Positions 39,822 through 58,533 of a stretch of DNA of 64,000 nt are shown in pieces. The stretch covers positions 4,064,001-4,128,000 of the forward strand of contig CBDFLE010000006.1 in the NCBI GenBank assembly GCA_965248925.1, written 5' to 3'. Below the pieces are notes generated by a model, which worked only from the letters and a program-made list of their open reading frames with translations, did not search any database and was not told the origin of the DNA. The position numbers and the translations under genes are program-made. The stretch comes from Candidatus Multivoradales bacterium. Its GTDB lineage: Bacteria > Acidobacteriota > Thermoanaerobaculia > Multivoradales > J023. How positions within the stretch are numbered: position 1 is the first letter of the stretch; the number at the start of each line of letters is the position of its first letter.

Positions 39822-39893
39822 GCTGATTGAGGTGCCAGTCACATTTGTGATTGAGGTGCCTGCTGATTGAGGTGCCAGTCACATTTGTGATTG
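39822..39893. repeat. Direct repeat of 32 bp, period 40 (GCTGATTGAGGTGCCAGTCACATTTGTGATTG)
   Basis: Copies at 39822-39853 and 39862-39893, plus a partial third TGATTGAGGTGCC between them. Confidence 0.85.
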
Positions 39894-42800
39894 GAGATTC
39901 GTTTCAAGACCTGATCACGGTCGCCGCGTCGAATGGCGGGACGAACGTACCGGTGACGCTGAGCTGGGGTTCGAACCTAGTGATCTCGGGTCAGACGGCA
40001 ACTGCAATCGTGGTGGCGGGCGTTGGGGGAAACCTGTTGCCGACCGATCCGGCAGGGACGCTGACCGCGTCGACGAGCCTTCCCTTCGACACCTTCAGTC
40101 TGATCTACCAAAACGGCCCGGACGACCCGATTAACGAGGGAGGGGCCGGGGTGAGCAACGGACATTCAGTGCGTATACCCGGCTTCGACTTCTGCGTCGA
40201 AGACACGCCGCCGGATCTCGAGATCGTCAAGACCGCGAGTCCGGCCGGCGCCGTGTCGCCCGGCGACACGATCACCTACACGATCGAGGTCACCAACAAC
40301 GGGCCGGGCAGCGCCACCGCCGTCACCGTCACCGACACCTTGCCCACCGGGGTCACCTACGTGCCGGGCTCGAGCTCGGCGACGTATTGGGTCGATCAGA
40401 TCACCGTCGTACCGGGCAGTTTTACCCACAACTACGGCGGCGCCACCTTCGACATCGCCGGTTTGAGCCAGACGTTCGACACCACCGGCAGCATTCCGGC
40501 CGGCGCCACGCTGACGTCGTACGAATTCACTGTCACCGGCAGCACGGTGGATTTCCTGAGCGACATCTCGTTGGCCGCGACCTATCCCGGCGGCACCGCC
40601 TATTCGTTGGCGGCCGGCAGCTTCGGCGGCGGTGGCCCGGGGGCGTTTAACGAAACCCGTGGCCCTGATCCCCTTGCAGGATCAGCCGAGGGGGTGTATC
40701 AGCTCATATGGGGAGATGTCTTCGACGGCGTCGGCGGCGACGACAACACGATCACCGCGGCGTCGTTCACCATCAACCACGAAACCACAACGGTGGGGCT
40801 AAGGCTGCGGGTGACCAATCCGTCGGCCGCGGCGCCCGGTCTGGTCACCGCCACGGTGCCCGAAGCCGGGGGCATCGATCTCGAGCCCGGCGAGACCATG
40901 ACGGTCACGTTCCAGGTCACCGTCGACGATCCGGCCCCCGGCGGCATCACCCAATTCCTTAACACCGCCGCGGCCGCGGCCACCGGCGTGCCGCCAGTCA
41001 GCGACACCGCGACCAATCCCCTCGGCGGCGCCGACGTAGCGGTGACCAAGACCTTGCTCACCCCGGGTACCTGCAGTGCGGGCCAGCAGGTGACCTACTT
41101 GGTGGCGGTGACCAACAACGGGCCGCTCGTCGCCACCAACGTGGTGGTGAGTGACACCCCATCCAACGTGATCATCCAGTGCGTCTCGAGCGCGAGCTGC
41201 GCGGCCTTCCCCTGCACCATCCCGAGCTTGGCCGTCGGTGCCACCGAGACCATCACGGTGGTGGGAGTGATCGGTGCCATCGGCGTGTTCGAGAACGCGG
41301 TGAGCGTCGCCGCCGACCAGGCCGACAGCGATCTCACCAACAACTCGGACCAAACCTCACACCTCGCCGGCAACGCGGTCAACGCGGCGTGCGAGTTCGA
41401 CAACGTGGCCTTCGTCAGCGCCGACACCAACGATCCCAAACCGGCCGATAACGTGGACGCCACGGGCAATGGTGGCTCGGCGTGTGCCGTCGACCTGGCG
41501 ATCACCAAGAGTGCGTCGCCGGATCCGGTGGCGGTGGGCGAGACCCTGACCTACACCCTGACCGTGACCAACAACGGGCCCGACGGTGCCACCTCGGTGG
41601 TGGTGACCGATCCCCTGCCGTCGCAGGTGACATTCCAGGGTGCGGTCCCGATCCAGGGTACGTGCAGCGAAGCCGGCGGCACTGTCAGCTGCAATATCGG
41701 GGACCTGGCGAACGGCGCTACGGCGACCGTCACCGTCACCGTCATCCTCGACACCACCGCTGTCTCTGACCCGCCGTGTCCGGCCGGCAGCATGAGCAAC
41801 GTGGCCACGGTCGGCGCTACCGAGTCCGATACCGACAGCGCCAATGATCAGGCCCAGATCTGCACCGCTACCCAGGCCCAGCTGCGGGTGGTCAAGAGCC
41901 TGGTCCCGAATACCGACATCGGGACCTTCGATTTGCAGATCGCCGGCGTCACCTACGCTGCGGCGGTCGGCAACGGCGGCGATACCGGCTTCCAGGGCGT
42001 CGACGCGGGCACCCCGGTGACCTTCGGGGAGCTGGCGGTGAGCCCGGCGGCGCTCAACTCCTACGACGTGATCTTCCTGTGTGTCGATGGCCATGGCGAT
42101 GTGCTGGCGACCAGCAACGAGGTGGTCACCGGTACCGGCGCCACGGCCGACGTGACGATCCCGGCGGGCGGCGCCGTCACCACGCTCGACCAGCAGGTCA
42201 CCTGCACAGTCTCCAATATCCGCAAGGCGAACATCGCGATCACCAAGAACGCGACACCGGCGGACGAGACCAACTTCGATTTCATTAGTGTCAAGAGGGT
42301 GGGCCCGGGGCCCAACCAGATCGGCGACTTCACGCTCGACGGCGAGCTGGTCGATGGCGCCGACGCCGACAGCGTCAACAACCAGCTGAGCTTCCAGGTA
42401 TCCGCCAACCGGACCTACCAGGTCACCGAGCTGGTGCCGGCGGGGTGGGAGCTGACCGATATCTCCTGTACAGACAGCACCTCCAACTCGACGGTGGACG
42501 TGGCGGGCCAAACCGCGACGCTGGTGCTCGATCCGGGCGACACGCTGGTCTGTACGTTCTTCAACCGCCAGCTGAGCCAGCTGACAGGAACGGTGTGGCT
42601 GGACGTCGACGGCGACGGTGTCGAGGACAACGGCGAGCCGGGGATCGCCGGCGTCACGGTCTTCTTGTGCGACGCGTCAACGCCGGTGTGCGATGCCGGC
42701 ACGGAGATCGCCACGGCGGTGACCGATGCCGACGGCAACTACGTGTTCCCGGATCTGATGCCCGGCAACTACCAGGTCCAGGTGGACGACACCGATCCGG

Positions 42801-45795
42801 CGCTCGACGGTCTCCAGGGCTCACCCGGCAACGGGGTGGGCAACAGCGGCACCATCGCCTTGCCGCCGGGCGGCACCGAAGTGGTCGATTTCGGCTACCT
42901 GCCGGACGCCGGCACCGCCGCCGTCGAAGGCACAGTGTGGAGCGACGCCGACGGCGACGGCATCGAGGATCCGGACGAGGTGGGAATCGCCGGCGTCACG
43001 GTGCAGCTGTTCAATGCCGACGGCACCCCGGCGCTCGACAGCGGCGGGCAGCCGATCACCGCGATCACCGGCCCGGACGGCTCCTACTTACTCACCGGAA
43101 CGCCCGTCTTGATCGGCACCACGGTCACGGACGCGAGCGGTAACTACAGCTTCAACAACCTGCCTGACGGCGACTACGTGGTCGAAGTACAGACCGCCGG
43201 TACCGCGGTGGACGGCTATGACCAGACCACCCAGAACGCCACGGGCGGTGTCGAGCTGGTCACTCTCGCGGGGGCGGACTCCACGGACCACGACTTCGGT
43301 TTCTTCGACAGCGGGCTAGTGACCAACCCGGTGACCCTGGCGTCGTTCGAGGCGTCGGGCACCTCTTTCAGGTGGGCCACGGCGACCGAGAGCGGAAATG
43401 TCGGCTTTTTCCTGTGGGCCTGGAACCGGGAGACCGGCGACTGGCAGGCGATCAACGAATCGCTGATCGCGTCTGAGGCGGTCTACTCGACTGATCCGCA
43501 GCACTATGCCTACGACGCGGGCTTACTCCACCAGGGACCGTTCATGGTGGAAGATGTCGACATCTACGGCCGCTCGCGTTTCCACGGGCCGTTCGAGGCG
43601 GATCAGCGCTTCGGCCATAAGGTCGCCGCGCAGCCGATCGATTGGCTGGCGGTGCGCGTTGCCCACGAACGTGCCGCGCGGTCGCGGTCGGCCGCCAAAG
43701 CTGCATCGTCCGGGACCGCGTCCGGGGCCGAGCTGCTGGTTGCCCAAACCGGTCTTTACCGCGTCACCTACGAACAGCTGTTGGCCGGCGGTGTGGACTT
43801 TCGAGGAACGCTCAAGCGCCGCCTGGCGCTGCTCGGTCCGGACGGCCCGGTGCCGATGCGCGTCGAATCGCCGCAAGGGCGTTTCGGCCCCGGCGGCTGG
43901 CTCGAGTTCCTGGGTGAGGCCATGGAGTCTCTGTACACCGAGACCCAGGTCTACCGCCTGGTAGTCGATGCTGCCCAGGCGCTGCGGCCGGCGGTCGACC
44001 ACAAGCCGGTGAACCCCCGGGCGGTAGCCCCCACCTCGTACCTCGAGACTCTGGCGGTGGGCCAGGACCGCCTTTACAGCTTCGGCTCGCCGAACGGTGA
44101 CCCATGGTTCGACGCTCGGCTTCTCGCCTCGTCGCAGCCGGCCGAGAAGGTCTATCGCTTCGAACTCGACGGCTACCTGCCCGATCAGCGGGCGCCTGAG
44201 CTGCGGGTCGAGCTGTGGGGTGTGACCGATTGGCCCGCAGCCCCCGACCACCATGCCGAGGTGTCGGTGAACGCTACCGTGGTGGCTGAGGCCCTCTTCG
44301 ACGGCCTGAGCGAGCAAACGCTCAAGGCGACCCTCACCGGCCTGAGCGCTGACGGCTCCGAAGAGCTGGTCGTGCGCTTGCCCCACGACACCGGTGTCGG
44401 CTTCGATCTGGTCCATGTGGAAGGCTTCTCGATTATCTACCCCCGTGCCGTCATCGCCCGCGATGGCCGTCTGCGGCTGGAGGCCAGCAGCAAAGTGCTT
44501 GAGGTGCGTGGCATGCCGTCTCCCAAGGCCGTGGTCTACCGTCTCGAAGACGGCCAGCTGACCCGCATCGACGCGCTGCAGAGCACCCTCGAAGCAGACG
44601 GATACCGCCTGCGCTTCAACGGTACCGCCGGCATGCCTGCGACCTGTTGGGTGGCGGATGTTGCCGCCCTGCTGACTCCGCAGATCCGTCCTGGCGCGGC
44701 AGCGGTCGATCTGCTCGACCGAGAGGCCGAACTCTTGATCGTCGCGCATCCGAGCTTCCTGGCCGGCATCGAGCCGCTCGCTGCGGCCCGCCGTGACGAC
44801 GGCCTGAGCGTGCGGGTGGTGGATCTCGAAGATGTCTACGCGGCTTACAGTGGCGGTGTGATCGATCCCGAGGCGATCCGCTCCTACGTCGCAGACGCTC
44901 ATGCCCGGATTGCCACCCGCTACCTGCTCTTGGTCGGATCGGATACCTACGACTACCTCGACCATCTCGGTCTCGGGGGGATCAGCTTCGTGCCGACTCT
45001 CTACGGCGCCACCGACGACATTGTAAGCTTCGCGCCGATCGACACTCGATTCGGCGACATCGACGGTGACCATGTCCCGGAGGTCGCGGTGGGCCGGTTG
45101 CCCGTGCGCACCCCGGACGAGCTGGACACGATGGTGAGGAAGATCTTGGCCTACCCCGCCATGGCAGCCGAGCGAACCGCGGTGTTCGCGGCCGATGGCT
45201 ACGACGCGGCCAACGCTTACTCCTTCACCGCCGACAGCGAGAGCCTGGCCGCGACCCTGCCCGCATCTTGGCAGTTGACCCGCGCCTACATCGACCAGCT
45301 CGGCCTGGCAGGTGCCAAGGAGTTGCTCATCGACACCCTCGACGCGGGTGTCTCCCTGGCCAGCTTCTTCGGCCATTCGGGTCCCACGGTGTGGAGCTTC
45401 AGCGGCCTGCTGAGCGCTGGTGACGCCGCCGCGCTCGACAACCGAGGCCGGCCGACGGTGATCACCCAATGGGGCTGCTGGAATACCTACTATGTATCGC
45501 CGTACTACGAGACCATGGGCCACCAGCTCATGGCCGGCGGCGATCCGAGAAGCGATCGCGGCGCCGCCGCCGTGCTCGGTGCCTCTACCCTGACCACCGC
45601 GGAAGGCGAACGCGAACTCGCGGCCGTCTCGTGCCGCGGCTCTTCGTCCCCGGCAACCGTGTCGGCGACGCCATCGTCGCCGACAAGCGAGCCTTGGCCC
45701 GAGAGTTCGGAGTAGGTGGCAGGCTAGACGTGCTCCTCGGATGGAACTTGCTCGGAGACCCAACCCTGGACCTCGGCCAAGCCGCGGCGCCCTAG
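39851..45795 (+). pseudogene. Giant surface protein: DUF11 repeats, SdrD-B-like repeats and C25 (gingipain-type) peptidase; 5'-truncated and frameshifted near 45620
   Basis: DLEIVK..TYTIEVTNNGP DUF11; GTVWLDVDGDG..EPGIAGVTV SdrD-B; LLLVGSD, VGRLP, FFGHSG, QWGCWN; conserved WNLLGDP tail lies in another frame ending 45795; no signal peptide. Confidence 0.78.
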
Positions 45796-46196
45796 ATCGT
45801 AGTCGCGGGTGGCTTCGAATCGGGAGATATCCATCTGTAGTCGAGCGATAGGGCACACAGTTGACGTCAAGGACGAGATACTGGGAGAGCCAGAGGACAC
45901 CGTTCAGGCCCATATGAGGGGACGACAGAGTTGCACACTCAATGGGTCGTCCCCCGTAGCCTTGCCTCATACCCCGCCGCGAAGTGTCTGGCACCGCCGC
46001 GGGTGGTGCCAGTGGTGGCACCACCCGGAACCCAGCCCAACCAAACCGGAAGGACCGCAAGAAGAATGCTGAAGCTGCCCGACAAGGATGAAGTTTCGAT
46101 GCCGGCCGGCAAGAGCTAGGAACAGCAGACGGTTTCAATGCAGCTGCGCCCGCCCTAGCTCCTCGGCGGCGGTTCATGACAGCAGGAACCGCACCC

Positions 46197-48683
46197 TCAT
46201 GGAAAGGGCTCGAGACGGATCTGATAACCGATCGTCACCGCCGGTTCATCGAACTTGGTCATCACCAGGTGCAGCTCGAAGTCGGTTCCAGGAACCACCG
46301 GCGACACCAGATTGACACTCCACTCGCGGACGGACCCGCCCACGGCCAGGTGCCGTCAGGTTGCTGGCGGATCGCGCTCCGTGGATAGGCCACGAGTGCT
46401 GGTAACATGAAGAGTTCGACTTCCGCCGACCAATTCCAAGATCACCGTGTTGTCGAAGATGATGTCGATGTCACTGATGTGATCCAGGTCGATGGTCGCG
46501 CAGCCCGACGTCGGATGGTCGAATTCGCAGGTCTGATCGGGGCGATCAATATCTCTCAACCCCAGCACCAACCTGCCACTGTCCGATGCCAGCAGATTGG
46601 GAAGTTGCCCGAAAATGTCGATCTTTCTGTGAAAGTTAGGGCTATTGAAGTCCACCGCGGCCAGCAGCTCGAACTGGCCCTCAGCCAGGAGTGTCGACCC
46701 GCCGACGGCAGGCAGGCAAACATCGATACTGGAATTGAAACCGAAGTCCGGGCCTACGTCCTTGACGCAGACCAACCCACCGGCGCACTCCGAGTCGTTA
46801 TCGCAGTCTCCCTGGCCGCGGCTGCAGGGGCCGCACTCGGTGCAGAAGCGGCCATGACCCGGCGGCCGAGGGCAGCTTCCACCACCGCCACCACCACCAC
46901 CACCACCGGTCCCGGCAAGGCAGACATCGACGGCGGGAGGGAAACCAAAGTCCGCACCAACATCGTTAACGCAGATCAGCCCGCTGGCACATTCCGAGTC
47001 GTTATCGCAATCCCCCTGGCCCTGTGTGCAGGGACCACATTCGGTGCAGAAACGGCCATGACCAGCCGGCCGAGAACAGCTTCCACCACCACCACCTCCT
47101 CCGCCGCCTCCGCCGCCACCGCCACCGCCGCCACCGCCGCCATCACCGGCAACGCAGACATCCACCGCCGGATTGAAACCAAAATCGACTCCGACATTGT
47201 TGGCACAGACCAGGCCTGGGGCACATTCGGCATTGCTGTCGCAGTCCCCCTGGCCAGCGGCGCAAGGCCCACACTCGGTGCAGAAACGGCCGTGACCAGC
47301 AGGACGGGAGCAGCTGTTACCGCCACCACCTCCGCCGCCACCTTCAGCCACGCAGACGTCGACGGCGGGAGGGAAACCGAACTGGCTGCCGACGTTGTCG
47401 GCGCAGCTCAGGCCAGCGAGGCATTCGAGGTCGCTGTCACAGTCGCCCTGTCCCTGCCCGCAAGGGCCACAAACAGTGCAGAACCGACCATTGCCAGGTG
47501 GCAGATCACAGTCCCTGGCGATAGCGTAGAGGAAACGCAGATCGGGCCGCTCAGCGTCGGCGAAGGCGATGGCGTCGTCGCTCACGGCAATCAGCGCAGG
47601 CTGGGCTCCTGCTGTCACTCCAAGCCAGGACCCTGTCTGAGTCGCGTCGATACGACCCAGGCTGTGGCGAATCTCACGACCGAGCAGAGCCATCGCGGCG
47701 CCTCGGCCACTGGCCAGCCAGCACTCGGCACCCTTGTTGAGCAGCACCTCGGCGCGAACGATCTGGTGAAACGGCTGGCCCTTCCAGGGATGCTCGGCAG
47801 GCTCGTACCAGACTCCGCTGAGCGCCAGGGTACCACCCTCTTGACAGTCGAAGCTGTCGCCGAGCAAGTCCGAGGAGGCGTCGAGATAGAGCACATTCGA
47901 TCCGCTGGCAGACTTGAACGGCAGACTGGTCAAGTCGCTAGCCAGCGCGCCTTGGAGGAGATCAATGGCGAAGAAGGGATCGCTCGACCAGAGCTCCAGA
48001 TTCCGAGAGAATGGCCCCAGATATTCGGCGACAGGGTCTGTAGCCAACCCATGAAGGTCCCACTGAACCGAGCCGCCATCGTCGAAGACCCGCCAGCGGA
48101 GGTTCACCGCCGAACTCTTCGTCGTCGTCAGGGCGCCAGCCAGCTCGACCGGTGACTCGACGAGATAGTCGGTCTTGACCTCCAGACCTTGGCTGGAGTC
48201 GCGCAGCCAGGCGAGGAAGCGCTCGGCGTGGCGATAGGGCCGCTGCTCAGTACCGCCCGGCGCCGCGGACCACAGCCGGCCCTGCTCGGAATCGACCCGC
48301 CAGAAGACACCTTGCGGAAAGTCGACCAGACGGTAGTGCTCGCTGCCACGGCGCAGGAAGAGCAATACCTCCTGACCGGGTGAGAAGACCGGTGCCCCCC
48401 AGATGTGGAGCACTCGGCCGCTCGATCCACGGCCGCCGGGAAATGACAGCCGCAGCACGGATCGAGCCACGTCACCAGCGATCAACGCCTCAATCCGCAC
48501 TTCCACCTCGGTGCGCGGACCCTGGGGAGTAGCGACAAACGCGACCTCGTCGACCACTCCCCGAACGATCAGCTCTGCCCGTTCAACCAGCCGCTCGTCC
48601 GCAACCTCGACGTAGCTGGTCGCCAGACTCGGCGCCACAAGACAGAGCATGCTCGCCAGAGCGAGCAGCACCTTGGTCGGCAT
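46197..48683 (-). CDS. Secreted Cys-repeat protein; 775 aa to the UGA at 46358-46356, or 828 aa if the UGA is read as selenocysteine
   Basis: Signal peptide, degenerate metzincin-like domain, four Cys-rich repeats; 52 further in-frame codons and a SECIS-like hairpin after the UGA. Confidence 0.7.
46326..46343 (-). promoter_or_regulatory. Putative bacterial SECIS element
   Basis: UGA + 12 nt + GUGGGCG-GGUC-CGUCCGC hairpin; same GGUC apical sequence and similar spacing as the E. coli fdhF SECIS. Confidence 0.6.
46716..47510 (-). repeat. Four intragenic ~54-aa Cys-rich repeats separated by poly-Gly linkers
   Basis: CxxPxG(H/N)GRFCTxCGPCxxGQGDCDxxxECxxGLxCxxxVGxxFGFxxxxDVC, four copies. Confidence 0.9.
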
Positions 48684-50011: not shown

Positions 50012-52543
50012 ATGACCCTCAACCACCACATTCTGCCAGCTGCCAACCCGAGCGCCAGGCTCAGCGGCTGGCGTCTATTGGCAGTCTGGGTGTTGATCTG
50101 CGCAACCGCGGCCTGCGGCACGGAAGAGCAGCTCCCCGAGGCCCCTGCCTTGGCCGGCGAGAGCATAGGGGATTTGGCGACCTCGCCAGATATTCGCTGT
50201 GGCCACCATCTCGAGCAAGGTGAGAATCAGTTGGCCCGCGCGGTCTGCGAGGAGGCGGTCGAGCAGGCTAGGCGGGACGCCAACCCGCGGCTCGAAGCCT
50301 CGGCGCTCAGCAAACTCGGCCAAGCCTGGCATGCGTCGGGCGATTTGCAGCGCGCCCTTGAACTCTACGGTCAGTCCCGTGACCTGGCGACCGCGGTTGG
50401 CGCGAGGGATTTGGCGACGGCTGCCGGGCACAACCTGGCGGTGTTGTTCGGTTCGGTAGGGCGCTACGACGATGCGGCTGAGCAGTTGCGGCGAGTAGTT
50501 TCGCAGCATGCTCCCGGTCCGGAACGGGCTGTGAGCACCATGACCTTCGGTCTGGCCCTGGTGGATAGTGGGCGGTTGCAGGAGGGCCTTGCTACCTACC
50601 ACCAAGCGCTCCAGCGACTGCGGGCTAGCGGCCAGACCGCCTACCTGGCGTTGACCCATGATCTGCGCGGCAAGTTGCTACTCCAGCTGGGTCGCCCGGA
50701 GGAGGCTCTAGCGCAGCATCAGCTGGCACTGCGGCTGATCAGAGAGACCGACGCCGTGCCCATCAAGGCCCATATTCACCTCAGCCTGGGCCTGCACTAT
50801 CAGCAGCGCGGCGACTGTGCGGCTGCCCGGCAATCCTTACGCCATGCCCGGCAGCTCTTCACCGAGCAGGGAAACGACGCCGCGGTGGCCGAGGGTGTGC
50901 CGGCAGAGGCACGTTGTCTGGCGTCGCAAGGCCACTGGCAGGAGGCTGAAGGTATATTGAATGAGGCGATGGAGAAGATCGAAGCGATGCGGGCTCGCCT
51001 TGCCCAACCCTCAATGCGGGGCGACTACCTGGGCTCCCGCTTTGGCATTTTTGGTACCGCGGTAGAGCTGGCCATGGAGCGTCATCGCGCCGAGCCTGGG
51101 GCTGGTCACGATGAGCGCGCCTTCGAACTCGCCGAAGGTGCTCGGGCTCGCACCCTGCTCGACCAACGGGTGAGGGTCGAACAGCGTTCGCGCTGGCGTT
51201 CCGACAGTGAGGAGGGGCGCCTGCGTCAGCGGCTCAGTGAGCTGGAAAATCGCCAGCTTCGTGCTCAGCTCGCTGGCCGCGAGCCAGCAGCGGAGTTGAA
51301 TCAGCGGATCGAGCAGCTCTACCAGCGCATCGATCGTCTCACCGGTCCCTTGCCACTCACCACGCCGCCCCTTGACTTGGCGACGATCCAAGCGGAGATC
51401 CTCGAGCCTGGGACCGTCCTCTTGAGCTTTCTATTGGGCAGCGAGCGCAGTCATCTGTGGTGGATCGAGCACAACGATCTGCACAGCTTCGAGCTGCCGG
51501 GTGTCGAGATCATCGATCGCTTGGCGCGCCAGGTACACCGCTCTTTGGCCAGTCCGGCGGATGCTGCCGGCGCTGACCAGCGCGAGCTCGATTTGAGGGA
51601 TCTCAGTGGTTTGTTGCTCGGCCCGGTGGCCGAGCGGTTAGCAGGGCAGCGCCTGCTGGTGGCGGCCGATGGCGCGCTGCATTACTTGCCCTTTGCGGTG
51701 CTTGCCCATCCGCTTACCGGCGAGCCCCTGGTGATGGAGCACGAGGTGGTTCACCTGCCCGCCGCGTCGTTGCTGGTGGCGCAGCGGCGGCGGCTAGTCG
51801 ATCGTTCGCCGGCCAAAGGTTGGTTAGCGGCGATCGGCGATGCAGTCTTCGATGCTGACGATCCCAGGTTGTCGGCAGCCGGTGCTGGCGTTGTGGTGCC
51901 GGGAACCGAGGAAACAGCTACGGCCAGCCGGGCGCTTGCCGGCCTGGGCATTGCGGGCTTGCGGCGATTGCCATTCTCGGGTCGTGAGGTAGAAGCCATT
52001 GGCAAGTCAGGCAAGCGAGAGGATGAGGTACTGCCCGCCACTGGCTTCGCCGCCACCCGCGAGCTGCTGCTCGGCGGCGGTGTGCGAGGTTTTCGCATTA
52101 TCCATCTGGCCACGCACGGGGTGTTCGACACTAGCCATCCTGAACGGTCCGGCTTGGTGTTCTCGCTTTTTGATCGCCAGGGGCGCCCGATCGATGGTTT
52201 GGTGCAGGCTCACGACATCACTGACCTCGACTTGCCCGCCGAGTTGATCGTGCTGAGCGCTTGCCGGACGGCACTTGGCAAAGAAGTACGTGGCGAGGGT
52301 TTGATGGGCCTCACCCAAGCGTTCTTTCAGGCCGGTGCCGCTCGCTTGATAGTCAGTTTCTGGCGCATTCCCGATCGTTCGACCGCCGAGTTGATGGGTC
52401 GTTTCTACCGTCACCTGGGTGAGGGCGGCCTGGCCCCAGGGGCGGCACTCCAGCAGGCCCAACGCTCGATGTATCAGGAGGGGTACGCCCCGCACCAATG
52501 GGCCAGCATGGCCCTGATCGGCGATTGGCGAGCCTTCGAATAG
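50012..52543 (+). CDS. TPR-CHAT (caspase-like) protein, possibly a lipoprotein
   Basis: TPR repeats, AEGARARTLLD, DGALHYLPF, HLATHG, LSACRT, SFWRIPD, HQWASM. Confidence 0.9.
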   Translation: MTLNHHILPAANPSARLSGWRLLAVWVLICATAACGTEEQLPEAPALAGESIGDLATSPDIRCGHHLEQGENQLARAVCEEAVEQARRDANPRLEASALSKLGQAWHASGDLQRALELYGQSRDLATAVGARDLATAAGHNLAVLFGSVGRYDDAAEQLRRVVSQHAPGPERAVSTMTFGLALVDSGRLQEGLATYHQALQRLRASGQTAYLALTHDLRGKLLLQLGRPEEALAQHQLALRLIRETDAVPIKAHIHLSLGLHYQQRGDCAAARQSLRHARQLFTEQGNDAAVAEGVPAEARCLASQGHWQEAEGILNEAMEKIEAMRARLAQPSMRGDYLGSRFGIFGTAVELAMERHRAEPGAGHDERAFELAEGARARTLLDQRVRVEQRSRWRSDSEEGRLRQRLSELENRQLRAQLAGREPAAELNQRIEQLYQRIDRLTGPLPLTTPPLDLATIQAEILEPGTVLLSFLLGSERSHLWWIEHNDLHSFELPGVEIIDRLARQVHRSLASPADAAGADQRELDLRDLSGLLLGPVAERLAGQRLLVAADGALHYLPFAVLAHPLTGEPLVMEHEVVHLPAASLLVAQRRRLVDRSPAKGWLAAIGDAVFDADDPRLSAAGAGVVVPGTEETATASRALAGLGIAGLRRLPFSGREVEAIGKSGKREDEVLPATGFAATRELLLGGGVRGFRIIHLATHGVFDTSHPERSGLVFSLFDRQGRPIDGLVQAHDITDLDLPAELIVLSACRTALGKEVRGEGLMGLTQAFFQAGAARLIVSFWRIPDRSTAELMGRFYRHLGEGGLAPGAALQQAQRSMYQEGYAPHQWASMALIGDWRAFE

Positions 52544-52799: not shown

Positions 52800-53645
52800 T
52801 TAGCACACTCTCATTTCTTGCTTGCTCATCGCACCAGCAAACTCAGCCGGCGGTAGGTTCCCCAACGAGCTGTGGGGACGTACATGGTTGTAGTCTATTC
52901 GCCAGTGCTCGATCTTGCGGCGAGCGTCTACTAAGTTCGTGAACCAGTGCAGGTTGCGGCACTCATCTCGCAGGCGGCCATTGAAGCTCTCCACAATACA
53001 GTTTTCGATGGGCTTGCCGGGCCGAATAAACAACAAGGTGACGGCGTTCTGGTAGGCCCACTCATCCAAGGCTCTGCTAGTAAACTCCGGGCCGTTGTCC
53101 ACCACAATCCGGTGCGGGTATCCTCGACTCTCGGCAACGCGATCTAGTACTCGGGCCACACGATGACCCGACAGGGACGTATCGACCTCGATAGCTACAC
53201 ACTCTCTCGTTGCCTCGTCCACAACGTTGAGAGCTCGGAAGCAGCGTCCACCTGCCAAAGTGTCGCTGATGAAGTCCATCGACCACTGCTCATTGGCTTG
53301 CTCAGGAACGACTCGCGGCAAGCGGTTTGCCTGCGCTACTCGCTTGCGCTTCCGGCGCCGCACAGCGAGCCCCAGGGCCTTGTAGAGCCGATAGACGCGC
53401 TTATGGTTGATCTGCTTGCCTTCGCGTCGTAGCAGCACATGCAGGCGCCTGTAGCCAAAGCGTGGCCGCTCGCCAGCGAGCTCTAGGAGTCTTTCCACTA
53501 CCTGTTCTTCATCAGGATTCTCTTGGCGGTGATAGCGCACCATCGAGCGACAGGTAGTCGCCAGACGGCACGCTCGGCGCTCACTACAACTGCGGCGCTC
53601 CCGGATCCACTCGACTGCCTCACGCCGGGTCGCGGGCGTCACCAT
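52800..53645 (-). CDS. IS3 transposase OrfB (DDE)
   Basis: [41 protein letters not shown]. Confidence 0.93.
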
Positions 53646-53905
53646 TTTCTCGACAGGGCTTCTTTGAGCACTTGCTTGTCCAGAGTTAACTCGGCAACAG
53701 CGACCTTTAGCCGCCGATTCTCCTGCTCTAGCTCTCGCAGTCGACGCGCCTCGCTGACCCCCATGCCACCGAACTTCGACTTCCACCGGTAGTAGGTTCC
53801 TTGGGACACGCCGTGTTCCCGGCATACGTCCTTCACTCGCTGCCCCGACTCCACTTGGTCGAGAACTCGGATGATCTGCTCTTCACTAAATCGGCTCTTG
53901 CGCAT
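53639..53905 (-). CDS. IS3 transposase OrfA (HTH)
   Basis: [12 protein letters not shown]...[31 protein letters not shown]. Confidence 0.93.
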
Positions 53906-56587: not shown

Positions 56588-57577
56588 TCAAGTACCCATG
56601 CGAAAGCCATTGTATTCGACTCCCTCTAGAGCCTCTCTGTAGCGCTCTACTTGGCGACGAAAGAGCTCACGGTAGCAGAGCCGAGCACCGCCGACGGAAA
56701 CCTCACCTTCGAGTGCCTTCTCCCAAGCCGGGAAGAATCTTTTTTGACCCAAACGGGTCAGCCGAACACCTTTGTTGGGATGTTTTCGAAAATGCTCAAG
56801 CCGCAGGATCTTTGTTCTGACCAGGCGGAGCACGAAACGATCGACCAATGGGGCTCGAAACTCCTCGAGTAGATCCAAGGCCAAGGACGGCCGCCCGTAT
56901 TGAGTTTGATGCAGCACCCCCAGGTAGGGATCAAATCCCATGCCGTCCAGCAACGCCTGCAGCTCCACGCCGGCCAAGACATAGGCGAATGAGAGTAGCG
57001 CGTTGACCGGGTCCGGGGGAGGGCGGCGTTTGCGGCCTGGGAACTCGAACGGCGCCGGGATGAGCTTGGCCAGCAGAGAGAAGTGGCGGCGGGCAGCGGC
57101 TCCCTCGGTGCCCAGCAAAGACCCCATCGAACCCGCTTCGAGAGCCTGAGCGGCGGCTGATTTCAGCTCGCGAATCTCGCTCAGCGGGACTTCCTTGGGA
57201 TGGTTGCCGCGAAACCGCTGCCACACAGCCGCCGCTCCGCGGATCTTGTTGCTGACCAGACGACGGCTCAGATCGAGGCAGAAGTCAGGATCGACCGATC
57301 TTTCGTACTGCCGCAGACGAAGATGGACATTCTTGGTCTCTGGCGGTGTTAGCTGGCCGCGGAGGCGGCCGTTGCGCGATAGCAAGGCTAGCTCAATGCC
57401 GTGGTCCAGCATCTCTACCGCCGCCTGCGTGGTAAACTGAACGTTGCCGAATAGCATTACTGTGGTCAGCTTCCTGCACGGCACTTCGAGCAAGATGCGG
57501 TCGTCCTTTTCTACATAAAGACGGTCACTGGTTTTGCGGACGATCGCTTGCTGTTCGGTGATGTAGAGGGTTGTCAT
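56588..57577 (-). CDS. cas1: CRISPR-associated endonuclease Cas1
   Basis: TLYITEQ, LLGTEG, RRPPPDPVNALLS, DPYLGVLH, LALDLLEEFR. Confidence 0.96.
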   Translation of the reverse strand: MTTLYITEQQAIVRKTSDRLYVEKDDRILLEVPCRKLTTVMLFGNVQFTTQAAVEMLDHGIELALLSRNGRLRGQLTPPETKNVHLRLRQYERSVDPDFCLDLSRRLVSNKIRGAAAVWQRFRGNHPKEVPLSEIRELKSAAAQALEAGSMGSLLGTEGAAARRHFSLLAKLIPAPFEFPGRKRRPPPDPVNALLSFAYVLAGVELQALLDGMGFDPYLGVLHQTQYGRPSLALDLLEEFRAPLVDRFVLRLVRTKILRLEHFRKHPNKGVRLTRLGQKRFFPAWEKALEGEVSVGGARLCYRELFRRQVERYREALEGVEYNGFRMGT

Positions 57578-58533
57578 ATCGAACTCTCCTTGCTGGCGAC
57601 CGAGCGCAGCTCGATATAGCGTCGTAGCCCAAGAGCCTGGGGCAGCGACGGCCGGCGCCGCTCTCGCTTCGCAGTGTCGAATGGGCGATAGATGGCATCG
57701 CCCACGAAGAGGGCGCCGAGAAAGCGAAAGCCACGCTCGAAGTTAGTCACCGAGGTCTTGGTGGGTTCGAGCAGCAGCTCCAGCTCGGCCAGCAACTCAT
57801 CGGCTACTCCCAGGGCGGTTTCGGCAGCAGGCTCGTCGCGGCAGAGGAGAATGAAGTCGTCGCCGTAGCGAACCGCCTGTTGACCGCGTCGCATCAGCTC
57901 CTCGTCGAACCGGTCGAGAAAGAGGTTGGACAGCATCGGTGAGACCACAGACCCCTGCGGTAGGCCCGCTTTGAGCTGCCAGATCGAAGTCCCATCGTAG
58001 ACTTCGGCGCAGACCCACAGCTCGATCAGAGTTTCTAAGTAAGGGTGAAGAGAGAGTTCCTTGACCCGACCCATCAATAGCCGATGGTCTACGCTGTCGA
58101 AAAAGTCGTCGATATCGGCGTCGACCACCCAGCGGAAACCGCGATCACGAAGATCTCTGACTCGCAACACCGCGTCTCTGACCGAGCGCCCGGTTCGATA
58201 GGCGAAGCTGCTGTCCTCGAAGCTAGCTTCGAAGCGTTCGCGACAGAGGAGATAGACGGCGCTCTGGGCGACCCGGTCGCGCACCGTCGGCACGCTCAAC
58301 CAGCGCTGACCGCCGTTCGGCTTGCCGACCGCAAAGCGCATCAGCGGCAGAGGGCAATAGACCCGGCGCGCCAGTGAGTTGGCGAGATCGTCGAGTTCGT
58401 AGTCCAAGCGGGCTCTGAAGCCGCCAAGATCCTGCCCATCGCAGCCGCGGCAGCCGCCGTTCTTGGCCACCCGCTCGAAGGCTCGGTGAAGCAGGCCGCA
58501 GGACGTCAGCTCTGCCATCAGTTCGTCGTTCAC
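57574..58533 (-). CDS. CRISPR-associated stand-alone reverse transcriptase (group II intron RT-like)
   Basis: GCDG, PTVRDRVAQ, SFAYR, DADIDDFFD, GLPQGSVVSPMLSN, RYGDDF, FRFLG; 4-nt overlaps with cas2 and cas1. Confidence 0.93.
   Translation of the reverse strand: MNDELMAELTSCGLLHRAFERVAKNGGCRGCDGQDLGGFRARLDYELDDLANSLARRVYCPLPLMRFAVGKPNGGQRWLSVPTVRDRVAQSAVYLLCRERFEASFEDSSFAYRTGRSVRDAVLRVRDLRDRGFRWVVDADIDDFFDSVDHRLLMGRVKELSLHPYLETLIELWVCAEVYDGTSIWQLKAGLPQGSVVSPMLSNLFLDRFDEELMRRGQQAVRYGDDFILLCRDEPAAETALGVADELLAELELLLEPTKTSVTNFERGFRFLGALFVGDAIYRPFDTAKRERRRPSLPQALGLRRYIELRSVASKESSI

Follow-up and report, generated by a model that had tools for sequence, protein, structure and literature searches.

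The window analysed here is a 64,000-nucleotide stretch of the genome of a Candidatus Multivoradales bacterium (assembly GCA_965248925.1, contig CBDFLE010000006.1, positions 4,064,001 to 4,128,000 of the forward strand). On its minus strand lies a gene for a putatively secreted protein whose reading frame is interrupted by a UGA at 46358-46356. Our analysis predicts that this UGA is a selenocysteine (Sec) codon, served by a conserved and covarying selenocysteine insertion sequence (SECIS) that resembles the element of fdhF; we put the probability of this reading, with the incorporation of selenium as its prediction, at roughly nine in ten. The C-terminal domain that carries the UGA defines a selenoprotein family which is undescribed, as far as the libraries and the literature examined show. 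The gene and its recoding elements are located as follows, in window coordinates.

46200..48683, minus strand: predicted selenoprotein gene, complete, 828 codons with Sec as codon 776 (basis: read-through, conserved TGA and conserved downstream sequence)
46356..46358, minus strand: UGA, predicted to be decoded as Sec (one alignment column shared by 11/11 loci retrieved by protein search and by 54 metagenome loci, the latter found with a pattern that demanded the TGA)
46200..46355, minus strand: segment after the Sec codon, 52 codons, with the last four beta strands (translation, alignment, AlphaFold2)
46197..46199, minus strand: actual stop codon TGA (homology stops at this codon)
46320..46353, minus strand: predicted SECIS element (invariant GGUC, pairing statistics, slid controls, RNAalifold)
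46343-46326, minus strand: upper hairpin GUGGGCG / GGUC / CGUCCGC, seven pairs, two of them G-U
46352-46350 with 46323-46321, minus strand: lower stem, CAC with GUG (RNAalifold)
46200..46718, minus strand: Sec-containing beta-sandwich domain, new family (alignment, AlphaFold2; invariant Cys pair, Sec as model residue 115)

The open reading frame (ORF) that starts with ATG at 48683 and extends to 46356 comprises 775 codons and ends in ...RDPPAT-TGA (46358-46356). Past this first TGA, exactly 52 more codons, RHLAVGGSVREW...RLEPFP, can be read before a second TGA at 46199-46197 closes the frame. An earlier note, made from the letters of this stretch and a list of its ORFs, had claimed a 775-residue ORF followed by 52 in-frame codons, and translation gives exactly those codons. 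Across the three codon positions, the GC content of the extension (0.69/0.40/0.77) resembles that of the main ORF (0.69/0.53/0.70), and none of the other 827 codons of the gene is a stop. Four sequencing runs of a single sample, possibly the source sample, yielded contigs that are identical over 46150-46800; the TGA is therefore no slip of the assembly. Gene calling in the style of the public databases would end the protein at 775 amino acids.

To find relatives, we searched six-frame translations of 41 genomes (the bacterium's own and 40 others) with the C-terminal 174 residues, in which the TGA was written as X. The search returned 11 matches in 10 genomes, each with a single in-frame TGA, and in the MAFFT alignment all 11 TGAs fall into one column. 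The consensus around it reads PEPDGP-U-DHSxVGGS, the window copy RDPPAT-U-RHLAVGGS. On the 3' side of the column, 50-88 codons per locus are conserved over the 11 loci, including invariant G, S, W and G columns. The earlier note had named homologues that end at the stop and show no downstream conservation as a sign against Sec; with TGA at this column in 11/11 loci and a conserved sequence downstream of it, no such pattern appears. The relatives' proteins are 26-41% identical to the window copy, and no paralogue of the family occurs within the bacterium's own genome. The terminal stop codons of the 11 genes are TGA in seven, including the window copy, and TAG in four. Since seven of the 11 genes end in TGA, it is an ordinary stop codon in these genomes which is recoded at one place. 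A sample of the phylum (301 genomes, the own genome and 300 others) added two more carriers, both with the TGA. The distribution is patchy, with carriers in 7 of the 23 genomes of the window's taxonomic family, plus a few others. Eight of the 11 members (the relatives at loci L014-L021) keep a C-terminal tail of about 18 codons, (L/I)FADGFE(S/T)GDTSAWSxTVP, which is absent from the window copy, L013 and L022; that it is a sorting or processing signal is only a query.

Twelve nucleotides (nt), cggcacctggcc, separate the TGA from a hairpin. The earlier note had pointed to this 7-bp hairpin, GUGGGCG-GGUC-CGUCCGC, and had likened its apical GGUC to that of the Escherichia coli fdhF SECIS. The hairpin is indeed present at 46343-46326, and the likeness extends to the spacing: in E. 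coli MG1655 the GGUC loop of fdhF starts 18 nt after the UGA, in the window element 19 nt after it. Both the GGUC loop and its distance from the UGA are invariant at 11/11 loci. The two arms of the upper stem pair in 97.4% of 77 cells, compared to 31-53% in controls that shift the 3' arm by 1-3 columns. Three of the seven stem pairs are altered on both sides among the 11 loci: G-C is replaced by A-U in four loci, while C-G to U-A and G-C to C-G are found in L022. A bulged U in the upper stem is seen at 0/11 loci, and the 7-bp stem is unbulged.

As the hairpin lies within coding sequence, compensation in the RNA is mirrored by coupled changes in the protein. One group of loci has VGGSA(H), another VDGSV(R), and L022 has LGGST(Q), the Gly-Ala of the first motif standing against the Asp-Val of the second. 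Synonymous positions are fixed as well: GGG, UCC and the next codon do not vary in their third base, and GGC does so in L022 only. Rfam holds no family for the hairpin region, with two rows of chance level only. A scan of the whole genome for TGA followed, after 16-22 nt, by a stem of at least 5 bp with a GGTC loop in open frames gave six matches and no further selenoprotein; among these six, a long stem is combined with a long ORF only at the site in the window.

The earlier note had asked for the Sec machinery in the genome, and all of it is encoded there. A tRNA-Sec scores 70.8 bits and is called by ARAGORN as tRNA-SeC with the anticodon tca; SelA scores 431.7 bits; the wing domain of SelB lies within a 648-residue ORF; and SelD (282.3 bits) is encoded about 62 kb upstream of the window. 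SelA occurs in 38 of the 41 genomes, among them all 10 carriers of the family. Scanning the own genome with TIGR01553 revealed no Sec-type FdhA, the best match reaching 58 bits and having no in-frame stops. That selA, selB, selC and selD are all present in spite of this is an observation in its own right, and proteins such as the one described here could be part of the reason why the machinery is kept where no Sec-type FdhA was found.

The family extends well beyond the genomes searched. A profile built from the 11 domains matched 18 proteins in a word-indexed collection and 150 in an exhaustive representative library, 83 of the latter at E <= 1e-10. All 167 distinct proteins were rescored locally with the same profile, and they are distributed over four classes with respect to the Sec column:

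88 of 167 end at the column or within a few residues of it (tails ...PEPDGP, ...PDAFSPG)
35 of 167 start 4-10 profile positions past it (at 120 or 126 in most)
27 of 167 span it
17 of 167 are other fragments

The first two classes bear the mark of gene callers that halt at the Sec codon. Entries from NCBI among the matches come from metagenome-assembled genomes of Acidobacteriota and are labelled 'hypothetical protein'. In most relatives the domain stands on its own, as a presumably secreted protein some 200 residues long. One homologue, P0115 (540 amino acids), is a C-terminal fragment that begins just past the Sec column and continues with two Calx-beta domains, for which reason some members appear to bear extra extracellular domains after the Sec domain. 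Two candidates were removed: P0031 (4072 amino acids), a giant adhesin among the 27 spanning proteins, was set aside, with 7-13 bits per repeat and matches that lie within SWM_repeat/Big_5 adhesin repeats, and P0149 was not counted, with 4.4 bits locally.

Metagenomes were scanned with a DNA pattern made of invariant columns only (the TGA, the spacing, the hairpin core and the Trp codon). It retrieved 60 contigs, and 54 of these encode a family member whose in-frame TGA falls on the Sec column; because the pattern itself demanded the TGA and the hairpin core, these 54 loci show abundance and near-specificity, not independent conservation, and pair counts on the 52 distinct segments are biased for the same reason. 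The commonest motif among them is P-[GT]-U-P-H-[TS]-A-V-G-G-S-A. A scan of metagenomes with protein patterns confirmed no relative, one of the patterns having Cys at the Sec position and being unable to match TGA, and the ESM Atlas gave no usable match when queried with the Cys form P0021.

From the 11-sequence alignment, AlphaFold2 predicts an all-beta domain of 11 strands (predicted local distance difference test score, pLDDT, 90.7; predicted template modelling score, pTM, 0.87). The modelled Sec (residue 115) stands directly before the eighth strand, and the strands that follow it span residues 116-120, 125-131, 140-150 and 155-164. The earlier note had read the extension as beta strands that complete the domain, in line with the four of 11 strands which the model places there. 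Because these four lie after the Sec, a product ending at the UGA would, on this model, miss a third of the sandwich and could not fold. A Cys pair, TCEFDHPTSGCAT, which the earlier note had also seen, is present in the window domain, both residues being invariant across 11/11 relatives. It is most likely a structural disulfide, judging from its persistence in forms that lack Sec.

Neither structure nor sequence comparison assigns this domain to a described family. Foldseek against the PDB returned nothing at E <= 1e-3. An exhaustive VIA search is led by tripeptidyl peptidase II (TPP II; 3lxu, Z 7.2, root mean square deviation 3.9, 110 residues aligned) and the P domain of furin (4omc, Z 7.1, deviation 3.4, 107 aligned), values within the range of Z 7-8 that unrelated jelly rolls typically reach according to the tool's own note; carbohydrate-binding modules (CBMs), GOLD domains and C-terminal domains of subtilases follow. 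No Pfam-A family matched three stand-alone members or the window domain at E <= 1, and no NCBIfam 20.0 family matched the same three members or the whole window protein at that threshold; in Pfam, the sole match of the whole window protein is Dickkopf_N. The families of Haft and Tolstoy 2025 reportedly have NCBIfam models, and NCBIfam was scanned here.

Table 1 of a review of May 2026 (PMC13188914) comprises 119 prokaryotic selenoprotein families or subfamilies. All but four of its entries carry Pfam, TIGRFAM or NCBIfam identifiers, and the four with other identifiers (cd, PTHR) are Trx-like, CopZ-like, BtuF and Fe-S oxidoreductase-like. No family like the Sec beta sandwich is among the 119 of that table; one mentioned in the supplement only would escape. 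Within the available parts of BSepDB (PMC13326102) and deep-Sep (PMC12013277), nothing similar occurs. Full-text literature searches likewise brought up no account of such a family, where one confined to supplementary tables would be missed. To the extent of these sources, the statement of the earlier note that it could assign the domain to no known selenoprotein family holds.

Several observations weigh against the Sec reading, in addition to the pattern-bound retrieval of the metagenome loci. The first concern the RNA element: the hairpin of L013 retains just five of the seven pairs, and the fold of the single window sequence has a z-score of -0.88, with 41 of 200 shuffles folding equally well. 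What supports the hairpin, as read from the alignment, is conservation among relatives, not folding energy. The second concern the residue itself. Twenty-six full-length members, which are distant homologues and not orthologues, have a sense codon at the Sec column, with the following residues:

Cys in 5 (P0021, P0023, P0063, P0088, P0125)
Arg in 5
Gly in 5
Ser in 3
His in 2
Trp in 2
Ala in 2
Thr in 1
Asn in 1

Two further spanning members carry a Cys four residues upstream of the column, and the remaining 19 have other residues. The expectation of Cys homologues in the earlier note is borne out by five of the 26; the Arg (five) and Trp (two) residues are of the kind which the same note had named as speaking for a simple nonsense mutation. 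As 21 of the 26 non-Sec homologues lack Cys at the column, the fold tolerates loss of the Sec residue, which is unusual for a catalytic Sec. The column is not strictly Sec/Cys in distant branches, and this counts against an indispensable catalytic Sec.

No CxxU or UxxC motif occurs in the domain either, and a comparison of 54 Sec forms with 25 non-Sec forms yields nothing certain on an active site. The core of the fold is kept in both, namely the Cys pair, D, W, N and the Trp after the hairpin. Residues typical of the Sec forms are a His at +2 (98% against 28% of the non-Sec forms), the Ser of GGS (100% against 16%) and the Ala after GGS (87% against 40%). The SECIS encodes all three, and CAY, the codon for the His, makes up the lower stem together with the GUG at the Trp codon. 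These residues therefore give no ground for inferring a U-x-H dyad. Finally, neither Pfam on the flanks of five loci nor an all-against-all clustering of frames from 73 loci gave a widely conserved neighbour, one downstream ORF without a Pfam match being common to a close subgroup only; the neighbourhood thus offers no clue to function.

Among the rival explanations, the one that survives best, improbable as we consider it, accepts read-through and disputes the residue: the UGA would be decoded by a near-cognate tRNA as Trp, Cys or Arg under stimulation by the hairpin, or SelB would deliver Cys under selenium scarcity. The GGUC loop near the fdhF spacing (19 against 18 nt), the complete Sec machinery and the use of TGA as the ordinary stop of 7/11 family genes argue for Sec instead. 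Trp in two and Arg in five database homologues fit near-cognate decoding, as their codons (UGG; CGA or AGA) are one step from UGA, and in other systems Cys is known to be inserted at Sec codons when selenium is limiting; the Trp entries may, in turn, be TGA codons translated by the gene caller under an alternative code.

We give still less credence to a TGA that is a real stop, followed by a separate small gene or by a noncoding hairpin such as an attenuator or a terminator. The downstream sequence is always in frame with the upstream ORF and has a coding-type GC content by codon position, the predicted sandwich needs both halves, and the 26 full-length homologues with a sense codon at the column run straight through it. 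While the hairpin is GC-rich, no T run trails it on its 3' side, and the 35 separate C-terminal fragments that favour two genes are predictions of gene callers.

A nonsense mutation in a decaying gene whose downstream frame has not yet eroded, as the seeming frameshift near the 3' end of the adjacent Peptidase_C25 gene and the degenerate metzincin motif of the gene itself might suggest, is scarcely credible with a TGA column shared by 11/11 loci in 10 genomes and by two phylum-level genomes, 88 shortened database clusters ending at it, no other stop among the remaining 827 codons, and a hairpin at fixed distance whose covariation excludes independent recent mutations in the relatives.

With Sec as the preferred reading, the following course of translation is proposed. 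While the ribosome sits on the UGA, SelB carrying Sec-tRNA(Sec) would bind the hairpin that starts 12 nt downstream, recognizing an element composed of the 7-bp stem, the GGUC tetraloop and the short lower stem. Sec would be inserted, and the ribosome would read 52 further codons before it reached the stop at 46199-46197. This would yield a protein of 828 residues, presumably exported, consisting in order of a signal peptide, a degenerate metzincin-like module, four Dickkopf-like repeats and the C-terminal beta sandwich with its one Sec.

As to the selenium chemistry, our favoured guess is a binding module outside the cell, in which the lone selenol would act as a soft nucleophile or ligand. 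Redox chemistry, either with peroxide or as Se-S exchange with the thiols of Cys-rich partners, is the mode to which we give most weight, though well short of even odds; Se-S exchange is hinted at by the Dickkopf-like repeats that are fused to the domain here and by the gene with such repeats, for a GDSL lipase, that is its neighbour in one relative. Binding of a thiophilic metal or metalloid we rate only slightly lower. The more general picture of a widespread, Sec-dominated family of extracellular, non-thioredoxin beta sandwiches, in which an exposed selenol would serve metal or metalloid capture, peroxide defence or Se-S exchange, is tentative, and we would rate its chances somewhat short of even.

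Upstream of the Sec domain, the window protein has three further parts.

46719..47483, minus strand: four Cys-rich Dickkopf_N-like repeats with poly-Gly linkers (Pfam PF04706 and translation)
47484..48614, minus strand: degenerate metzincin-like module (homologues in 41/41 relatives; REIRHSLGRID in place of HELGHTLGLGHS, no Met-turn)
48618..48683, minus strand: putative signal peptide MPTKVLLALASMLCLVAPSLAT (read by eye from the translation; similar hydrophobic leaders in homologues)

A similar hydrophobic leader opens every homologue of the N-terminal module and every stand-alone member. Three stretches of the repeat region match PF04706 (E 4e-9, 37.1 bits at a cut-off of 25), and the fourth repeat was identified by eye. 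The metzincin-like module, 377 residues long, has no Pfam match of its own, and the word-indexed protein search with the N-terminal region gave no match. By six-frame genome search its homologues were found in 41/41 relatives, at 1-6 copies per genome; the own genome contains three further matches, at two loci. Peptidase_M10 and/or Reprolysin matches occur in 13 of the 16 module homologues scanned, usually followed by fn3 or PKD domains, and 17 of 18 aligned ones have the HExxHxxGxxH motif (HELGHTLGLGHS) together with a Met-turn.

Paralogues or orthologues of the module in every relative have HELGHTLGLGHS and the Met-turn of metzincin metalloproteases and match PF00413 or PF13688. In the window copy, by contrast, REIRHSLGRID has Arg for the first His and Asp for the third, and the Met is missing, so that its module is probably not a protease. 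Taken as a whole, the window protein looks like a secreted pseudo-protease scaffold in which Cys-rich repeats and the Sec domain replace the usual fn3/PKD tail.

In one relative (G015, loci L016 and L024), a stand-alone Sec gene lies directly downstream of a gene for a secreted GDSL lipase (L024:1497-3563, plus strand). This lipase carries Dickkopf_N-like repeats which are 49-58% identical to those of the window over aligned segments. The adjacency amounts to a single Rosetta-stone-like hint. A Peptidase_C25 gene runs convergently towards the selenoprotein gene, here as well as in G021. In the window it occupies 39851-45795 on the plus strand and encodes a surface protein of 1954 amino acids with three DUF11 domains, SdrD_B, a SpaA-like domain and Peptidase_C25. 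The last 60 or so codons of the C25 protein lie in another frame (...LLGWNLLGDPTLDLGQAAAP*) and resemble the C-terminus of its homologue at L027, which implies a frameshift near 45600-45630, real or due to an assembly error.

Elsewhere in the window, 50012-52543 encodes a CHAT-TPR protein and 52800-53825 an IS-type integrase. A reverse transcriptase gene (57574-58533) stands beside Cas1 (56588-57577), both on the minus strand, and the pair suggests a CRISPR adaptation module associated with a reverse transcriptase.

A secreted beta-sandwich family dominated by Sec broadens the known uses of selenium. Its compact and highly conserved SECIS, UGGGCG-GGUC-CGCCC, could improve SECIS models. Public protein collections, for their part, split this one gene into at least 88 N-terminal and 35 C-terminal fragment clusters. 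The family also illustrates how an RNA element within a coding sequence fixes amino acids, in this case V-G-G-S-A and probably the His at +2. For this reason, conserved residues near a Sec are not necessarily catalytic, and caution is advisable when they are interpreted in this way.

Comparison with known systems begins with E. coli fdhF. As in the window, its SECIS is part of the coding sequence, follows the UGA directly on the 3' side and has a GGUC apical tetraloop. The host proteins, however, are unrelated, and the apical stem of fdhF has 3 bp within a longer, interrupted helix, whereas the window element has a GC-rich, unbulged stem of 7 bp that is perfect or nearly so. A bulged U that is reportedly important for E. 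coli SelB has no counterpart in it.

Jelly-roll accessory domains of secreted proteases and carbohydrate-binding modules (TPP II, the P domain of furin, the C-terminal domains of KP-43 and Tk-SP, CBMs and GOLD) are all-beta sandwiches of similar size and are likewise placed C-terminal to a protease-type module. With identities of 5-16%, and none of them with Sec, they share the general architecture only.

The families covered by Table 1 of PMC13188914 rest on the same kind of evidence as the present one, that is, a conserved in-frame UGA, a downstream SECIS, Cys homologues and Sec machinery, and the artefact of truncated entries in public databases is common to both.

The great majority of bacterial selenoproteins are redox enzymes of the cytoplasm or periplasm, with thioredoxin-like folds and UxxC or CxxU motifs. 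Most known selenoprotein families conform to this thioredoxin-like type, whereas the window family is a presumably extracellular beta sandwich whose one Sec has no Cys near it in the sequence, and its Sec forms far outnumber its Cys forms (88 shortened clusters against five). The protein is thus of a known kind, a bacterial selenoprotein with an in-frame SECIS, and is unusual in its presumed extracellular location, in its beta-sandwich fold free of UxxC and CxxU motifs, and in the predominance of Sec among its members.

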